A stretch of 51,524 nucleotides of DNA from Proteobacteria bacterium UBA6915 (GTDB lineage Bacteria; Pseudomonadota; Gammaproteobacteria; UBA6915). Of this stretch, positions 21,126-51,524 are shown in pieces. The stretch spans positions 1-51,524 of the forward strand of contig DKAX01000097.1 of NCBI GenBank assembly GCA_002450975.1, in the 5' to 3' direction. Each line of letters starts with the position of its first letter. The stretch's first letter is position 1. A program made the position numbers and the translations under genes. The notes beneath the pieces were generated by a model. The model was not told the DNA's origin, made no database searches, and was given only the letters and a program-made list of their open reading frames with translations.

Positions 21126-21216
21126 TGTAACAATGCTGTCGCCCAGACAAAGATGTTTTCAAATAAATGGATTGTAACCGATTGGTAGTATGGATACGCT
21201 TGATTTGGAGGAAGGT

Positions 21217-21831
21217 ATGTCGGGATGGCATGTTATCGAGAGGACTGTTCAGACCCTGGTGCGCTTGCTCGAGCAACGCATCGAACTGGCCGGTATCACC
21301 GGCTTGTCAGTTCAACCTATAACCACGGCTTCTTTCGACAAAATTAGCGCTTCTTCTTCACCTGTTATTTCGCTTCTCCTATATCAAGTAAAAGAAAATG
21401 CAGAATGCCGCAATGCACCGAGACGCCCCGGCACCGGTGGTCAGGATTTCAGGCAACCCTTGTCGCTCGAGCTGGGTTACCTGGTGACACCCTGGGGAAG
21501 CCGGTCTTCGGACACCATTACCGATGATTCTATTGCGGCACTTGAGGAGGCGCGTTTGCTGGGTCTTGTTCTGCAAACATTCTACGATCATGCGGAGGTT
21601 GGCACAGCAGAATTGTATGACGACCCATTAGTACCCGTTTGGCATGCGGGTGACAGTCTACAAATTATTTTGGAGTCATTGCCAATCGAGGATCACTACC
21701 GAATATGGGATGCATCGGAGTTGGGTTATCGTTTATCGCTAACCTATCGTGTACGTGTAACCTACCTTAATTCTGAGGATATTATCATTGCTCCGCCAGT
21801 AACGGATTCCACTTTTATGGTGAAACCATGA
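21217..21831 (+). CDS. DUF4255 (Pvc16/Afp16 N-terminal-like) CIS tail terminator/cap protein
   Basis: ISLLLYQVKENAECRN..., PLSLELGYLVTPW, EEARLLGLVLQTF and HYRIWDAS..YRLSLTYRVRV match the DUF4255 pattern. The GGAGGA RBS favours ATG 21217 over the ORF-track start at 21190. Confidence 0.8.
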   Translation: MSGWHVIERTVQTLVRLLEQRIELAGITGLSVQPITTASFDKISASSSPVISLLLYQVKENAECRNAPRRPGTGGQDFRQPLSLELGYLVTPWGSRSSDTITDDSIAALEEARLLGLVLQTFYDHAEVGTAELYDDPLVPVWHAGDSLQIILESLPIEDHYRIWDASELGYRLSLTYRVRVTYLNSEDIIIAPPVTDSTFMVKP

Positions 21832-22487
21832 GTTACGACATTTGGAAACATGATCTGTCATTTGTTGTGCGATTCAATAATCACTTTACAGGAACAGCCG
21901 TGAGTGATGAATTACCCGTGCGTTTGAACAATACATTTATCAGACCTGTGCAGAAGACTGATGGTGCAGGATTGCGGCAGACTGATGGTACTTATCGATT
22001 TATCGATTTGAATCCCGGACTGCATCAGGTGTTGTGGTTGCCACCATTTATGAATTCCTACCGGGGTTGGATTTCCTTCGAAGATGAACTGAATGTAGTT
22101 TTGCCAATAGAAAATCCGGGGGCTGTAATTGAAAGGGTACTTTGGCCATCTCCGGATGCTGTGGTATCACCAAGTACTACAGCAATACGTGGGAAATTGC
22201 GTGGAGACAATGTGACCGGACTAGAGGTTCGTATCATGCCTGATGTTGAGTTATCAACACCATTTTTTACACTGAGTGACCGGTTAGGGGAGTTTCTATT
22301 TCAGATATCCAATCCGGTTACTGCCGAGGACAATGGGTTGCTCAGTTTGAGAATAGAGGTAGAGGCAGGTGGCAGGGTAGTTACCGGTGGTGGCTTTATA
22401 CCACCTGCAACAGGGGCGACATTTCCAGCGGCTGTGTTCAAGGTAAAGCCGGGAATATGTTCACGCGTTATTTTTCAAGTTACATGA
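21828..22487 (+). CDS. Hypothetical CIS-associated protein with beta-sandwich (carboxypeptidase-regulatory-like) repeats
   Basis: The ATGA start overlaps the upstream stop. IRGKLRGDNVTGLEVRI...LSDRLGEFLF resembles CarboxypepD_reg-type folds. The assignment is weak. Confidence 0.4.
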   Translation: MSYDIWKHDLSFVVRFNNHFTGTAVSDELPVRLNNTFIRPVQKTDGAGLRQTDGTYRFIDLNPGLHQVLWLPPFMNSYRGWISFEDELNVVLPIENPGAVIERVLWPSPDAVVSPSTTAIRGKLRGDNVTGLEVRIMPDVELSTPFFTLSDRLGEFLFQISNPVTAEDNGLLSLRIEVEAGGRVVTGGGFIPPATGATFPAAVFKVKPGICSRVIFQVT

Positions 22488-50034: not shown

Positions 50035-50205
50035 TTGGTGTGATCAAAAAAGTGGTCAAAAAATCTGGTGCTTTGAGTTTGAATTGATACGCCTGTGGAA
50101 GAGGGTATTTATAGAGGTGCGTTAATGTTTACTGGTACCCGTTTACTCTATGGGCCTGTTGAATAAACCAGTGGTGTCGTCGTATAGAAACAAGGCCAAC
50201 AAGTC

Positions 50206-51524
50206 ATGAGTGGCGGACCGAGCACAGTTCAAAAAAAGAACCCGGCAGCCTCTGGTAAAAGCCAGCAAGGTCAGGTGGCAACCACCCCCAAAAAGGATCA
50301 TAGCAAATCGGGTGATTCTATACTACAACAGAAGGTAGGCAATCAGGGCGCGGTTGGTTTGATATCAACGATGCTGCAGATCGCCGCTGGTGTTGTAGGA
50401 AAGAATTCCAAACAGGATAGTCCATATCAAACGCCTCCTGAGATTTGTGAAGAAGAAGGGCCTAGCAAGGTAGAGATTCACATTTCAATCGATAAGCCGT
50501 ACGCGCCGAAGGCGCAACCGGTTGGGGGGGGTGACAAGCCCGAAGAATTAGTATTTGAAGAGCCAATTGCCCGTGAGGCAATCCTCACCTTCTGGGCTGT
50601 TCCAGTATCGGAAATTACGGCAACTTCACCTGCCCCCGCCCCTGGAAAACAGGCTGTTGTTGAAACGGCCCAGGGGACATACGAGGTAGTTTCACGTACC
50701 CCGGATTTTTTCATTACCAATCGTTACCATAGCATGGCATGTGGGGCGGGCAGTACATCGGTCTTCACGACAGAGCAGGGCGTAGTGGTGGTAGATGCAG
50801 GTGTTCATTCAATAGGGAAAAATGTAAATACTGCAATCGCAGACGCGACAATGCAGCGTCTAACTCAGATAATCGGCAACCGTCCGATTATAGAGATGAT
50901 CTTTTCTCACACTCACCTGGACCATACCGCATTAGCGCCTCGAATCGCGGAGAAATTTGATTTACGCTCCATCCGCCTCAACGGTATTCAGCTAGCCAGT
51001 CGGGTTTTCGGTCGTATACGAACTGCAATTGCCAGGTCGCGATCGGTATATCGTGAACGTATAGCGGCAGAGTTACGCGCCGAGCTCGCCCCAATTCGTG
51101 CAGGATGGGAACGTAGTCAGGAATACATTCCGGAAAGTGCGGCACGAGAGGCCCGTTGGTCGAAATATGTCGATCGTGTTGTACAGGACCGCCTTGACCT
51201 CATCAATCCGACTGAACTCAATATTCTAGTCCCCCATAAAGGCAAGATGTACGTTACGCAAATTCCGATAGAGCTGCCCGGGTTGCCGCAATTGGAGGCC
51301 ATTGAGGCAGGTAAGCCGATAACGCGTGGAGCAAATGAAAAAGGCCGAACTGCGATCGTTGATCCTGGTGCTGAAAAGGAATACGAGCGCGTTAGAAGGA
51401 CAGGACGCACAAGGGATCTTGATCGCTATTCGACGACGTGGATTATCGAAATCGGGGAGATTCGTTTGCTTGTTCTGCCCGATTTGCGGGCGCGTGATAT
51501 TGAGCGAATTTTAGGATGTTTCCG
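50206..51524 (+). CDS. 3'-truncated ORF (not in the supplied track): leader-bearing metallo-beta-lactamase-fold protein, candidate second CIS cargo
   Basis: I translated this by hand. ATG 50206 follows an in-frame TAG at 50185-50187, and no stop occurs before the window end (439 codons). The N-terminus is a Lys/Ser/Gln-rich leader with SILQQKVGNQGAVGL. The MBL signature is VVVVDAGV...IIEMIFSHTHLDHTALAP (HTHLDH at 50908-50925). Confidence 0.7.
   Translation, partial: MSGGPSTVQKKNPAASGKSQQGQVATTPKKDHSKSGDSILQQKVGNQGAVGLISTMLQIAAGVVGKNSKQDSPYQTPPEICEEEGPSKVEIHISIDKPYAPKAQPVGGGDKPEELVFEEPIAREAILTFWAVPVSEITATSPAPAPGKQAVVETAQGTYEVVSRTPDFFITNRYHSMACGAGSTSVFTTEQGVVVVDAGVHSIGKNVNTAIADATMQRLTQIIGNRPIIEMIFSHTHLDHTALAPRIAEKFDLRSIRLNGIQLASRVFGRIRTAIARSRSVYRERIAAELRAELAPIRAGWERSQEYIPESAAREARWSKYVDRVVQDRLDLINPTELNILVPHKGKMYVTQIPIELPGLPQLEAIEAGKPITRGANEKGRTAIVDPGAEKEYERVRRTGRTRDLDRYSTTWIIEIGEIRLLVLPDLRARDIERILGCF

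Follow-up and report, generated by a model that had tools for sequence, protein, structure and literature searches.

The block at positions 21190–51524 of the window, as the whole 51,524-nucleotide stretch of DNA under analysis is called here, carries a full contractile injection system (CIS) gene set in an uncultured gammaproteobacterium. Sequence comparison supports its assignment to the eCIS superfamily, rather than to prophages or canonical type VI secretion systems (T6SS). The cluster is an ordinary member of a branch that has been catalogued yet never studied. Loci of the same branch were found in Teredinibacter sp. KSP-S5-2, Palleronia pontilimi, Sphingomonas psychrotolerans, Bradyrhizobium sp. 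AZCC 2262, Sorangium spp. and Kofleriaceae MAGs, with identities of 35–80%. The nearest relative is 75% identical in the sheath and 63% in g15, and the cluster is therefore a new member of the branch. The gene order common to the branch, pieced together across overlapping loci, runs from cap, g2, long sheath, tube, short sheath, two tube adaptors and a small ORF to hub, spike, gp25, J, NHL-P2_I, g15, g16, g17 and g18. The order from sheath to g14 is repeated in more than 10 loci of unrelated taxa and extends to g17 or g18 where the sequence reaches that far, which points to a functional unit that moves horizontally. Neither the g19-g20-g21 insert between g18 and the ATPase nor the giant protein g23 was found in these branch loci, and g10–g11 occur in only some of them.

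The ORF listing and inspection gave 24 tightly coupled genes (g1 to g23 and g7b), all on the plus strand as are all coordinates below, from 21190 to the end of the window. Against about 27 in the initial annotation, this count comprises 22 ORFs that reach 130 aa or more, the conserved 64-aa ORF at 28502–28696 and a further ORF that begins at 50207 and leaves the window. The eight start/stop overlaps quoted previously were all read in the sequence, namely ATGA at 21828, 29951, 45273 and 47210, TGATG at 27195 and 48055, TAATG at 39628 and GTGA at 34566. Intergenic distances from g1 to g22 span −35 to +75 bp, and 172 bp separate g22 from the last gene, g23. Upstream of the cluster an ORF-poor stretch of 1.7 kb was observed, and G+C is lower in the flanking 16–22 kb region. 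A LuxR/GerE-family response regulator is encoded at 19897..20619 (Response_reg 1.8e-14, GerE 1e-18). GerE-domain regulators are reported to adjoin eCIS operons (PMC8213781), and its adjacency suggests that it may regulate the cluster. The 116-aa protein directly 5' of the cap gene (20775..21125) had no significant family match; visual inspection hints at a receiver domain.

Family HMM searches supported the sheath, tube and baseplate assignments of the initial annotation, starting with the DUF4255 cap. The cap/tail terminator g1 (Cis16; 21190..21831) matched Pvc16_N/DUF4255 at 5.6e-29, and its homologues, 48% identical, likewise come first in the related loci L001 and L002. It is followed by g2 (21828..22487, 219 aa), for which family HMM and PHROG searches gave no match; L001 and L002 have homologues with 31–42% identity in the equivalent position, and in a Rhodococcus opacus plasmid cluster the slot is occupied by a hypothetical gene. 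Two sheaths had been claimed and two were found (Phage_sheath_1 at 1.6e-19 and 2.2e-12). The long sheath g3 (22515..25334, 939 aa; Phage_sheath_1 and Phage_sheath_1C) contains an insertion of roughly 500 aa at about residues 100–630, of which residues 235–376 are similar to residues 374–522 of g14; full-length relatives of g3, about 905–947 aa long, number at least 80. Among solved structures g3 matched the Streptomyces CIS sheath 8bky best, at 1e-113 in two stretches, whereas Pvc2 and Afp3 scored 1e-46 to 1e-48. The short paralogue g5 (25822..27195, 457 aa), which also has sheath domains, is kept in all related loci, and its best solved relative is again 8bky (1.2e-53).

The three tube-type proteins named earlier were likewise recovered. 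These are the inner tube g4 (Cis1; 25359..25817; Phage_T4_gp19 8e-41, TIGR02241 131.5 bits, exceeding the cut-off), the tube-like adaptor g6 (Cis5-like; 27195..27845; Phage_T4_gp19 1.9e-30, TIGR02241 97 bits, also exceeding the cut-off, CIS5_fam 7.8e-20) and the tube initiator g7 (Cis7-like; 27862..28488; CIS_tube 6e-27). The mechanical ORF of g7 begins at 27811, while the ATG at 27862 sits after a GAGGAG site; its LysM-like C-terminus matches endolysin and baseplate-hub PHROGs. The 64-aa g7b (28502..28696), overlooked in the initial annotation, has a GGGAGAG site upstream and homologues at the equal position in ten related loci, with the common ends MPxxI..EI and EEL..Y.RMRG. Its counterparts are called as a 62-aa gene in L058 and a 68-aa gene in L057. 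No Pfam or NCBIfam family matched g7b, and its size and position make it a candidate Cis6/Afp6-like plug.

The hub and spike are split over two genes that together correspond to Cis8. The hub g8 (gpD/VgrG N-terminal part; 28698..29954) matched NCBIfam VgrG_rel at 1.7e-9 over residues 93–399, a PHROG tail protein at 2.5e-18 and a PHROG baseplate-hub family; the gpD claim stands, albeit more weakly than those for the other families. For the spike g9 (29951..30640), also claimed previously, the gpV/VgrG C-terminal OB domain was found (Phage_base_V 5.7e-17), along with VgrG_rel at 3e-19 on the C-terminal part of the model. The PAAR-like tip g11 (Cis10; 31490..31888) was borne out by Tox-PAAR-like at 1.1e-32 and PAAR_motif at 2.5e-6. 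Always found together with it is g10 (30652..31488), which was seen only in the window, the closest relatives and Palleronia. DUF2169 at E = 0.06, and a "faint" DUF2169 mark on the homologue in L059, weakly suggest that g10 might be an adaptor for the tip. The gp25, J and gpI-like proteins of the baseplate were found as annotated: the sheath initiator g12 (Cis9; 31894..32310; GPW_gp25 2.5e-22), the J protein g13 (Cis11; 32314..34569; Baseplate_J 2.2e-11, TIGR02243 289.6 bits, exceeding the cut-off), which among solved structures is closest to the 9gtp baseplate protein (7.9e-53), and g14 at the Cis12 position (34566..37346; Tail_P2_I 3e-9). The latter carries an N-terminal NHL beta-propeller that matched TRIM71 at 2e-26, a pairing also seen in L013, L056, L057, L058 and one further context.

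The fibre slot is occupied by the paralogues g15 and g17. The initial annotation had reported no recognisable Afp13-type fibre, which holds for the adenovirus-like type but not for the slot itself, as both proteins have Cis13-type N-termini. This fibre-anchor type goes with Tail_P2_I baseplates, and multi-fibre loci are enriched in Myxococcota and Pseudomonadota (PMC12923769). The baseplate protein g15 (37391..38650, start codon uncertain within 37319–37391) matched CIS13_fam at its N-terminus (1e-10) and has Ig-like C-terminal domains. Its AlphaFold2 model (pLDDT 81) resembles TssK (probability 0.96–0.98), a phi812 baseplate protein and the Anabaena CIS baseplate, and also siphophage receptor-binding proteins; full-length homologues are found in all related loci. 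In g17 (39628..42048; CIS13_fam 5.4e-6) paralogy to g15 covers the N-terminal ~180 aa, whereas the C-terminal 600 aa differ. Homologues of g17, full-length or partial, were found in every related locus extending that far, and their alignment has 70 invariant columns, nine cysteines among them. Between the two lies the conserved cysteine-rich g16 (38669..39628), without a match in family HMM and PHROG searches, which is 39% identical in L057 and 27–36% in L058 and L059; positional equivalents have a common C-terminal Cys motif. The tape measure of the initial annotation, g18 (Cis14; 42067..43806, 579 aa), found no family in HMM and PHROG searches and is a candidate by gene position; its N- and C-terminal thirds are conserved and its middle is variable. 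The order g15–g18 is identical in every related locus covering the stretch, in Myxococcota, Alpha- and Gammaproteobacteria and one Actinomycetota-labelled MAG. Judged by this comparison these are core genes, not the non-canonical accessory set they had been taken for, and the variable set proper consists of g19–g21, g23 and the g10–g11 tip module.

Downstream of these genes lies the cargo module. The DUF4157 cargo protein g20 (45273..47213) was confirmed by the eCIS_core/DUF4157 HMM (3.2e-25) and comprises a charged N-terminus, an HExxH domain, a proline-rich linker and a DUF6310-like C-terminal domain (3.3e-5, below threshold); HExxH is invariant in 34 related DUF4157 modules. [quoted passage not shown] The 281-aa g21 (47210..48055), coupled to g20 and g22 by ATGA and TGATG overlaps, had no family match and no homologue in any related locus fetched; we can only guess at an immunity protein or a chaperone. 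The AAA+ ATPase of the initial annotation is g22 (Cis15; 48055..50034; AAA 2e-24), with an N-terminal winged-helix domain (WHD 1.3e-11) and 35–39% identity to the ATPases of L001, L002 and L017; in L017 it lies directly 3' of the g18 counterpart. At 50207..51524 an open frame with an HTHLDH motif forms the start of g23, a 1604-aa protein that continues past the window and is complete on the source contig. Residues 180–259 are metallo-beta-lactamase-like (Lactamase_B 2.5e-5), and its position makes a second cargo possible.

The one new lead in the cluster is the link between g19 and the cargo genes. This divergent integral membrane protein (43882..45276, mechanical ORF from 43840) matched LGT at 4e-16, and helix prediction and a model of pLDDT 82 and pTM 0.83 indicate multiple membrane passes. 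E. coli Lgt (5azb) was the sole significant solved fold match (Foldseek probability 1.00), the transmembrane fold being common to both. In the profile alignment GRxGCxxxGCCxG is invariant, the positions corresponding to Lgt R143, G154, R239 and E243 vary little or not at all across the g19 family, and Y26 and H103 also align, residues which we take to be functionally important in Lgt. In contrast to Lgt, invariant cysteines replace the signature residues N146 and E151, an additional C-terminal helix and a 130–180-aa alpha/beta domain are present, and the gene lies amid CIS cargo genes rather than in a housekeeping context. The closest relatives of g19 adjoin DUF4157 genes in each of the 16 best metagenome loci, compared to 0 of 50 weaker relatives, and g19 tracks DUF4157 genes rather than baseplate genes. 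This suggests a membrane enzyme-like protein that travels with cargo genes, a modestly new observation.

Sheath, tube and baseplate families are also common to myophage tails, and the block could be a prophage tail module or an R-type bacteriocin (tailocin) killing by puncture without cargo. The initial annotation had named head and packaging genes just past the window as the mark of a prophage; capsid, portal, terminase and integrase genes are absent from contig positions 1–60034, which comprise the window and 8.5 kb downstream. Upstream ORFs of at least 116 aa, all of which were scanned, gave only metabolic and regulatory families, and neither the window nor the 8.5 kb after it showed a recognisable lysis cassette, the LysM-type stretch of g7 being the one match to endolysin families. 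A DUF4255 cap, a winged-helix AAA+ ATPase and DUF4157 cargo together mark eCIS-type systems, and plasmid and E. coli collections gave no match. The prophage or tailocin reading is largely refuted over contig positions 1–60034 and is highly improbable. The VgrG-like spike, PAAR-like tip, possible DUF2169-like adaptor and TssK-like fold of g15 would suit a canonical T6SS, but no TssJ, TssL, TssM or ClpV was found in the window or 8.5 kb downstream, in agreement with the membrane complex having been reported missing. TssA and TssB/TssC families did not match either, both sheaths have phage-type sheath domains and a DUF4255 cap is present; within the DNA examined a canonical T6SS is refuted, its probability being negligible. 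That the cluster is a decaying or silent relic, an island acquired horizontally that has ceased to make particles, is very unlikely. The uncultured host, represented by a single 66-kb contig, the lower G+C and the upstream ORF-poor stretch would fit such a relic; however, all 24 genes are intact without frameshifts, translational coupling is retained, every core part is present, and a second sequencing run, SRR5324712, yielded an assembly of the same 6.4-kb piece (g20–g22 and the start of g23).

We consider it moderately probable that the cluster encodes a complete eCIS-type CIS of the Tail_P2_I/TssK-like branch and, more tentatively, that the particle is released and fires on another cell, with g19 in the cargo module. 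Counting against release, TssK-fold proteins connect T6SS baseplates to membrane complexes, the closest solved relatives, from Streptomyces, act inside the cell, and g19 could anchor the particle in this locus. The machine may instead act inside its producer, either cytoplasmic and stress-fired as in Streptomyces, or membrane-docked and contact-fired outward as in haloarchaea and Anabaena, in which case g15/g17, the NHL propeller and perhaps g19 would form the dock. Consistent with this, of the solved structures the Streptomyces CIS is nearest to both sheaths and J, the g15 model adopts a TssK fold, Cis13 of Anabaena anchors the particle in the membrane, cluster-encoded membrane proteins of haloarchaea and Streptomyces are linked to function, g19 is a multi-pass membrane protein within the cluster, and lysis genes were not recognised. 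On the other hand, no transmembrane helix is predicted in g15 or g17, whose outer domains include Ig-like ones, and the g15 model is also phage receptor-binding-protein-like. Furthermore, g19 follows DUF4157 rather than baseplate genes, and the candidate haloarchaeal anchor, with six or seven helices, is not its homologue. As g19 is missing from the closest related loci, which retain g15–g18, and comparison of related loci revealed no membrane protein conserved across the branch, there is no conserved anchor. Action inside the producer is possible, though less likely than release.

For the released particle, cap, tube, sheaths, hub, spike, tip and baseplate would assemble as in solved CIS structures. 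By analogy and from the models, g15 and g17 may dock on the g14 wedge via their common N-terminal domain and display differing outer domains, Ig-like in g15, that together with the g14 NHL propeller could attach to a target surface or to a partner in a membrane. The ATPase g22 would load g20, and perhaps g23, into the tube via a disordered N-terminus. Most tentatively, the particle would leave the producer and fire on another cell, and g19 would serve as an Lgt-fold, membrane enzyme-like protein of the cargo module outside the particle.

The designation Afp/PVC-like holds at the superfamily level but not in detail. With the class I eCIS Afp (Serratia entomophila) and PVC (Photorhabdus) the cluster has in common the superfamily and the roles of cap, sheath, tube, adaptors, spike, PAAR, gp25, J, AAA+ ATPase and 3'-side cargo, while sheath similarity is far weaker. 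Afp/PVC have three sheath paralogues rather than two, a single VgrG rather than a split hub and spike, Afp12 in place of Tail_P2_I and adenovirus-like fibres in place of TssK-like proteins. Their cap gene is last and here it is first, as the initial annotation had noted of the gene order; cap-first is however normal in the branch, and the ATPase position varies among relatives. With the thylakoid-anchored CIS of Anabaena (7b5h) and the membrane-bound CIS of haloarchaea the cluster shares the Cis13-type N-terminal baseplate-binding domain, in g15 and g17, and DUF4157 genes within the cluster. The g15 model weakly matched one 7b5h baseplate chain; it differs, as does g17, in having no transmembrane helix, and a Cis19 crown gene was not found. 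The closest solved sheath (1e-113) and J (7.9e-53) are those of the cytoplasmic CIS of Streptomyces coelicolor and S. venezuelae (type IId; 8bky, 8bl4, 9gtp), which also resembles the cluster in its Cis16 cap and Cis11/Cis12 wedge. That system has a single sheath of 534 aa, lacks fibre-like proteins and includes the bitopic membrane protein CisA, no counterpart of which was recognised in the cluster, whereas the cluster has two sheaths, one with the ~500-aa insertion, a pair of TssK-like proteins and a P2_I protein bearing an NHL propeller.

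The proteins of the cluster, which runs on the forward strand from position 21190 to the end of the window, were compared with HMM families. On homology, the cluster is assigned to the eCIS superfamily of contractile injection systems (CIS) and would supply all parts of a contractile particle, among them the cap, a Tail_P2_I baseplate and a spike tipped by a PAAR-like protein, along with the ATPase and a DUF4157 cargo. The cap protein g1 matched Pvc16_N at 5.6e-29 (101.6 bits, cut-off 27) and the probable cargo protein g20 matched eCIS_core (DUF4157) at 3.2e-25 (88.5 bits, cut-off 22). 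Phage_sheath_1/1C was carried by g3 and g5, Phage_T4_gp19 by g4, and the spike, tip and baseplate families matched were GPW_gp25, Baseplate_J, Tail_P2_I, Phage_base_V and Tox-PAAR-like. TIGR02241 and TIGR02243, both TIGRFAM models of phage-tail-like regions, scored above their curated cut-offs, and g22 combined an AAA domain (2e-24) with a WHD (1.3e-11) and was homologous to ATPases of related CIS loci. The family assignments of the initial annotation, comprising a DUF4255 cap, two sheaths, two gp19-type tube proteins and one CIS_tube protein, a gpV spike, a PAAR-like tip, gp25, baseplate J, Tail_P2_I and an AAA+ ATPase, were thus borne out by HMM, and its gpD hub, g8, was backed by a VgrG-related model together with phage tail and hub families. 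All eight start/stop overlaps that it quoted were found in the sequence and the gene packing is operon-like, while its estimate of about 27 genes came down to 24.

No capsid, portal, terminase, integrase or lysis cassette was found in contig positions 1–60034, and the 8.5 kb downstream of the window, where head and packaging genes had been proposed as the mark of a prophage, held none. Likewise, Pfam and NCBIfam scans matched no TssJLM membrane-complex or ClpV family of the type VI secretion system (T6SS) and, among the cluster proteins, no TssB/TssC sheath pair; both sheath genes bear phage-type sheath domains. A prophage and a canonical T6SS were therefore rejected for contig positions 1–60034, as the initial annotation had anticipated. 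Potential promoter and terminator sites upstream of g1 were no commoner than in shuffled sequence, RNA genes were not detected anywhere in the window (Rfam at gathering thresholds and a tRNA scan), and no megablast match was obtained for 23.8 kb in E. coli genomes or plasmids. An apparently ORF-free tail after 50034 turned out to be a long ORF running off the window.

On the metagenome contig k127_198875 (ENA ERZ925371, run ERR688353), which is 66,417 bases long, the window occupies positions 1–51,524, with coinciding coordinates. A second run, SRR5324712, also yielded a 6.4-kb piece with g20–g22 and the beginning of g23. The genes upstream are cellular and encode sucrose metabolism, a PAS histidine kinase, response regulators, a GGDEF-EAL protein, a methyltransferase, two MarR regulators and an RlaP-family protein. 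The sucrose set (1903–8649) consists of two GH100 invertase-like genes, a PfkB kinase, a fused sucrose-phosphate synthase/phosphatase and a separate phosphatase; the synthase was 56–69% identical to proteins of uncultured Gammaproteobacteria (for example Thiohalomonadaceae, Granulosicoccaceae and Ectothiorhodospiraceae) and had no close match among 185,579 species genomes. Going by this one gene, the host would probably be a gammaproteobacterium. A 1.7-kb A+T-rich stretch (18189–19896, about 39% G+C), holding no convincing ORF on either strand, separates the RlaP-family gene from a LuxR-type regulator, and the whole 16–22 kb region is lower in G+C than the cluster (52–59%). Downstream of the ATPase gene lie g23, a 1604-aa protein with a metallo-beta-lactamase-like domain, and a 294-aa protein. 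These are followed on the opposite strand, convergent to the cluster, by a second Cis15-type ATPase (AAA and WHD; contig 56582–58705, equivalent to 18528–20651 of the extended source-contig DNA L009) that is 38% identical to g22, and then by genes for an 89-aa protein and an ECF sigma factor.

A 64-aa gene (g7b, 28502–28696, forward strand) that the initial annotation had overlooked separates the genes of the LysM tube initiator and the hub. Ten related loci have it at the corresponding position with a conserved sequence, the ends reading MPxxI..EI and EEL..Y.RMRG. It lies below usual ORF size cut-offs, although its counterpart is annotated as a gene in two further relatives. No Pfam or NCBIfam family matched it, and DUF5908, found as a small protein at the Afp6 position of a Serratia cluster, was dismissed as an identity on the lack of a Pfam match; on size and place g7b may be a Cis6-type plug. 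The gene g10 invariably occurs together with the PAAR-like tip gene g11; its DUF2169 signal was weak, and DUF2169 is also marked on the homologue of a relative. In the T6SS, a DUF2169 adaptor is paired with a DUF4150 PAAR-like protein. By analogy g10–g11 would resemble such adaptor pairs, and we treat this as a lead only. For g18, both ends were conserved and the middle variable, and searches for a tape measure gave no family or structure match. It directly precedes the ATPase gene in one relative, a position that Afp-type clusters give to their tape measure, so g18 is taken as a candidate tape measure (Afp14/Cis14) on position.

The initial annotation had seen no recognisable Afp13-type tail fibre, which stands insofar as no adenovirus-like fibre is encoded; the fibre slot itself is nevertheless occupied, by g15 and g17. 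Over their common N-terminal domain (about 180 aa), the NCBIfam Cis13 model was matched at 1e-10 (g15) and 5e-6 (g17), and in Anabaena Cis13 the corresponding N-terminal part binds the baseplate. A predicted structure of g15, built from 58 homologues (pLDDT 81), matched TssK with a probability of 0.96–0.98 (0.98 for the TssK N-terminal domain), and also matched a staphylococcal phage baseplate protein, one Anabaena baseplate chain and Ig-like domains. Among viral models, siphophage receptor-binding proteins were matched. TM-scores of these matches were low (0.2–0.3), which is expected for a multi-domain model, and the likeness is read as a fold-level indication. The TssK link came from the predicted fold alone, since searches of solved structures by sequence, with single sequences as well as family profiles, gave chance matches only for g15 and g17. 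Neither protein had a Pfam match to DUF6519 (eBAP5), and the fold match does not separate eBAP3 from eBAP4/eBAP5. Taking the Cis13 N-termini together with the model fold of g15 and the fit to a recent catalogue of these systems, the fibre slot is predicted to be filled twice, in which case g15 and g17 would be seated on the wedge and present binding domains. A further binding module is likely to be the NHL beta-propeller of g14, which matched TRIM71 at 2e-26 and is conserved in the branch, and a conserved cysteine-rich protein, g16, is encoded between both fibre-slot genes.

Invariant cysteines are abundant across g15–g17 (37391–42048), including C56, C81, C92, C137, C149 and C151 of g15 and nine in g17. 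The motif HHG is likewise invariant in g17, and the cysteines may form metal sites or disulfides. In the long sheath g3 (22515–25334), residues 235–376 within the large insertion resembled residues 374–522 of g14 (34566–37346) at 29% identity (E = 3e-9), and the g14 homologue of the related locus L015 likewise matched the g3 insertion. Judging from these alignments, the sheath surface and the baseplate may both display one module.

In the two closest relatives that reach as far as the cargo region, a DUF4157 protein directly follows g18. Here, three genes (g19–g21) are inserted ahead of the ATPase gene. The product of the middle one, g20 (45273–47213), begins with a charged region, followed by a DUF4157 domain in which HExxH is intact. 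A proline-rich linker, for which tandem repeats code, then leads to a DUF6310-like domain at the C-terminus. Because this layout is the same as that of AlgoCIS cargo proteins, in which the N-terminal region directs tube loading with an AAA+ protein and DUF4157 is dispensable for loading, g20 is by analogy very probably cargo and would be loaded by g22; g23 may be a second cargo on account of its position. The PPxRP linker of g20 is encoded by two tandem DNA repeats with periods of 18 and 24 (46531–46647), which could vary its length. A Cys-Pro pair was conserved in the N-terminal DUF4157 modules of loci with an Lgt-like gene (g20 and 33 modules in comparison loci L012–L089), the cysteine in 29/34 and the proline in 31/34. 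It corresponds to C94-P95 of g20 and lies about 150 residues before the invariant HExxH. This arrangement may resemble a cysteine switch.

The one new point of the locus is the association of DUF4157 genes with an Lgt-like protein, g19, for which no earlier report was found in literature searches. Seven or eight membrane helices and a C-terminal alpha/beta domain were predicted for g19, which matched Pfam LGT at 4e-16 and, as a profile, E. coli Lgt (5azb) at 4.3e-12, its sole significant solved fold match (Foldseek probability 1.00). GRxGCxxxGCCxG was invariant in 47 members of the g19 family. In the alignment to Lgt, the equivalents of R143, G154, R239 and E243 were invariant or nearly so and Y26 and H103 aligned, while N146 and E151 of the Lgt signature (G142–G154) were replaced by invariant cysteines; we take these positions to be functionally important in Lgt. 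As the score against the NCBIfam Lgt equivalog was also far below cut-off (66.5 bits against 334), g19 is classed from its sequence as a member of the Lgt superfamily and not as an Lgt orthologue.

All six g19 homologues whose contexts were looked up lie in CIS cargo regions. Metagenome contigs, scanned independently, returned 80 loci, which were ranked by similarity. DUF4157 or CIS core genes were present in all of the 16 best loci and in 23 of the 30 best, with the DUF4157 genes on the strand of the Lgt-like gene and the nearest mostly within about 0.2–2.8 kb. The 50 weaker relatives served as an internal control; none had CIS markers (0/50), and a CIS link for all GCxxxGCC Lgt-like proteins was discarded on this count. 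A clear family member (MPY17_RS39595; hhalign E = 1e-39), encoded on plasmid NZ_CP095404.2 of Rhodococcus opacus strain 9, is transcribed divergently from the cap gene of a CIS cluster. The Pfam enrichment table of PMC8213781 lists LGT in eCIS operons two times and without enrichment, and a literature search found no paper joining 'contractile injection' with 'diacylglyceryl transferase' or 'prolipoprotein'.

Several further observations were made in these loci. Three members of the Lgt-like family (P0131, P0153 and P0154) are fused to a CxxCxxCC (PF03692) metal-chelating domain, and a free-standing CxxCxxCC gene adjoins the DUF4157 genes of one CIS locus (L056, 4580–4978). In four CIS loci that are unrelated (L012, L013, L141 and the context of P0127), genes for BTAD-domain regulators are found near the Lgt-like gene, and HEAT-repeat genes stand beside a DUF4157 gene in L055 and L141.

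As to what g19 does, our judgement ranks a membrane partner or enzyme for DUF4157 cargo ahead of general self-protection, and the latter ahead of a dock for the particle. The g19 family tracks the DUF4157 N-terminal module and not any single toxin domain, which argues against a toxin-specific immunity role. That this small subfamily is a dedicated partner of DUF4157 cargo proteins in CIS is a speculative proposal to which we give a low probability. It comes in two versions: acting as a lipid-transferase-like enzyme at the cytoplasmic membrane, the g19 family may modify or hold the cargo, or else a component of the particle, ahead of loading, or it may dock the particle at the membrane. Either, if true, would bring into the handling of CIS cargo a membrane step that described systems lack and would provide the DUF4157 domain with a testable partner. 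A classical lipoprotein transferase for the adjoining cargo was rejected on the one candidate substrate examined for a lipobox, Cys94-Pro95 of the DUF4157 modules, as this conserved cysteine comes with neither lipobox nor signal peptide. A core anchor of the branch was likewise rejected, the closest relatives being devoid of g19. Homology to the haloarchaeal anchor was also set aside; the Halogeometricum candidate, a protein of 388 aa with six or seven helices encoded upstream of the CIS cluster, gave an hhalign probability of 0.6% and would be Hbor_38620 judging from size and helices. On the same plasmid (Halogeometricum borinquense pHBOR03 65704–72282, equivalent to L142 5705–12283, forward strand), a 2192-codon open frame crosses a region for which the plasmid table lists small hypothetical genes only and runs into the first annotated haloarchaeal CIS gene; it may have arisen by chance, the DNA being rich in G+C, or represent a gene missing from the table.

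Release of the particle from its producer is somewhat more likely than not. An intracellular or membrane-docked mode, which we regard as less likely, would agree with the closest solved relatives acting inside the cell, with TssK being the membrane-complex connector in the T6SS and with lysis genes going unrecognised in contig positions 1–60034, but it is at odds with outer proteins that resemble receptor-binding proteins, with a cargo of AlgoCIS type and with there being no membrane protein conserved across the branch. Since the nearest solved relative is intracellular, yet the outer proteins are receptor-binder-like, the branch is well suited to the question of released versus retained particles. 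It is widespread in soil and water bacteria and is characterized by two sheaths, one of them of double size, by a Tail_P2_I wedge that bears an NHL propeller and by two putatively TssK-like outer proteins. Cultured carriers are Teredinibacter sp. KSP-S5-2 for the core system and Rhodococcus opacus for a plasmid-borne CIS cluster with the Lgt-like gene. In our judgement the locus itself would be expected by a specialist, and the Lgt-like family beside DUF4157 genes is a useful, concrete and testable lead on what DUF4157 modules need.

A genome scan with g14 alone retrieved nothing, and matches came once g14 had been aligned with one homologue. Overlapping loci shared the order cap, g2, long sheath, tube, short sheath, two tube adaptors, hub, spike, and further gp25, J, NHL-P2_I, g15, g16, g17 and g18 across Myxococcota (Sorangium, Kofleriaceae and 'delta' MAGs), Alphaproteobacteria (Palleronia), Gammaproteobacteria (Teredinibacter sp. 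KSP-S5-2) and one MAG labelled Actinomycetota; homologues of the long sheath and g15 were also recorded in Sphingomonas and Bradyrhizobium. The closest relative was 75% identical in the sheath and 63% in g15, and structure and literature searches found no solved structure or studied member of the branch. The gene order does differ from Afp/PVC, as the initial annotation noted, but a cap-first order is normal within the branch, and most of the accessory genes described as non-canonical are conserved core parts of it. Placement of the ATPase gene varies; it precedes the cap gene in two relatives and immediately follows g18 in a third.

The description of the cluster as Afp/PVC-like holds at the superfamily level only, as the sheath and J matches are nearer to the Streptomyces cytoplasmic CIS than to Afp/PVC. 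The former was the nearest solved relative on three proteins, namely the long sheath g3 (8bky/8bl4, 1e-113), the short sheath g5 (8bky, 1.2e-53) and the J protein g13 (9gtp, 7.9e-53), whereas g3 matched Pvc2 and Afp3 at 1e-46 to 1e-48, a similarity far below that to the Streptomyces sheath. Class I Afp/PVC clusters have three sheath paralogues, a single VgrG-type Afp8, Afp12, an adenovirus-like Afp13 fibre and the cap gene last; this cluster has two sheaths, a split hub and spike, a Tail_P2_I protein, putative TssK-like fibre-slot proteins and the cap gene first. In Streptomyces type IId, the baseplate genes are followed by the gene of a conserved bitopic membrane protein, CisA, and fibre-like proteins are lacking, in contrast to the two fibre-slot proteins found here and to g19, the sole membrane protein, which is multi-pass and Lgt-fold (CisA being compared by description). 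In a 2026 catalogue (PMC12923769), Tail_P2_I baseplates bear fibre anchors of eBAP3 type, whose N-terminal domain of about 200 aa has a TssK-like shoulder fold, and multi-fibre loci are enriched in Myxococcota and Pseudomonadota. The layout described there, a Tail_P2_I adaptor followed by fibre genes, is matched by g14, directly g15 and then g16 and g17. The system is of a kind already catalogued, of which this locus is a new and fairly divergent member within its branch.
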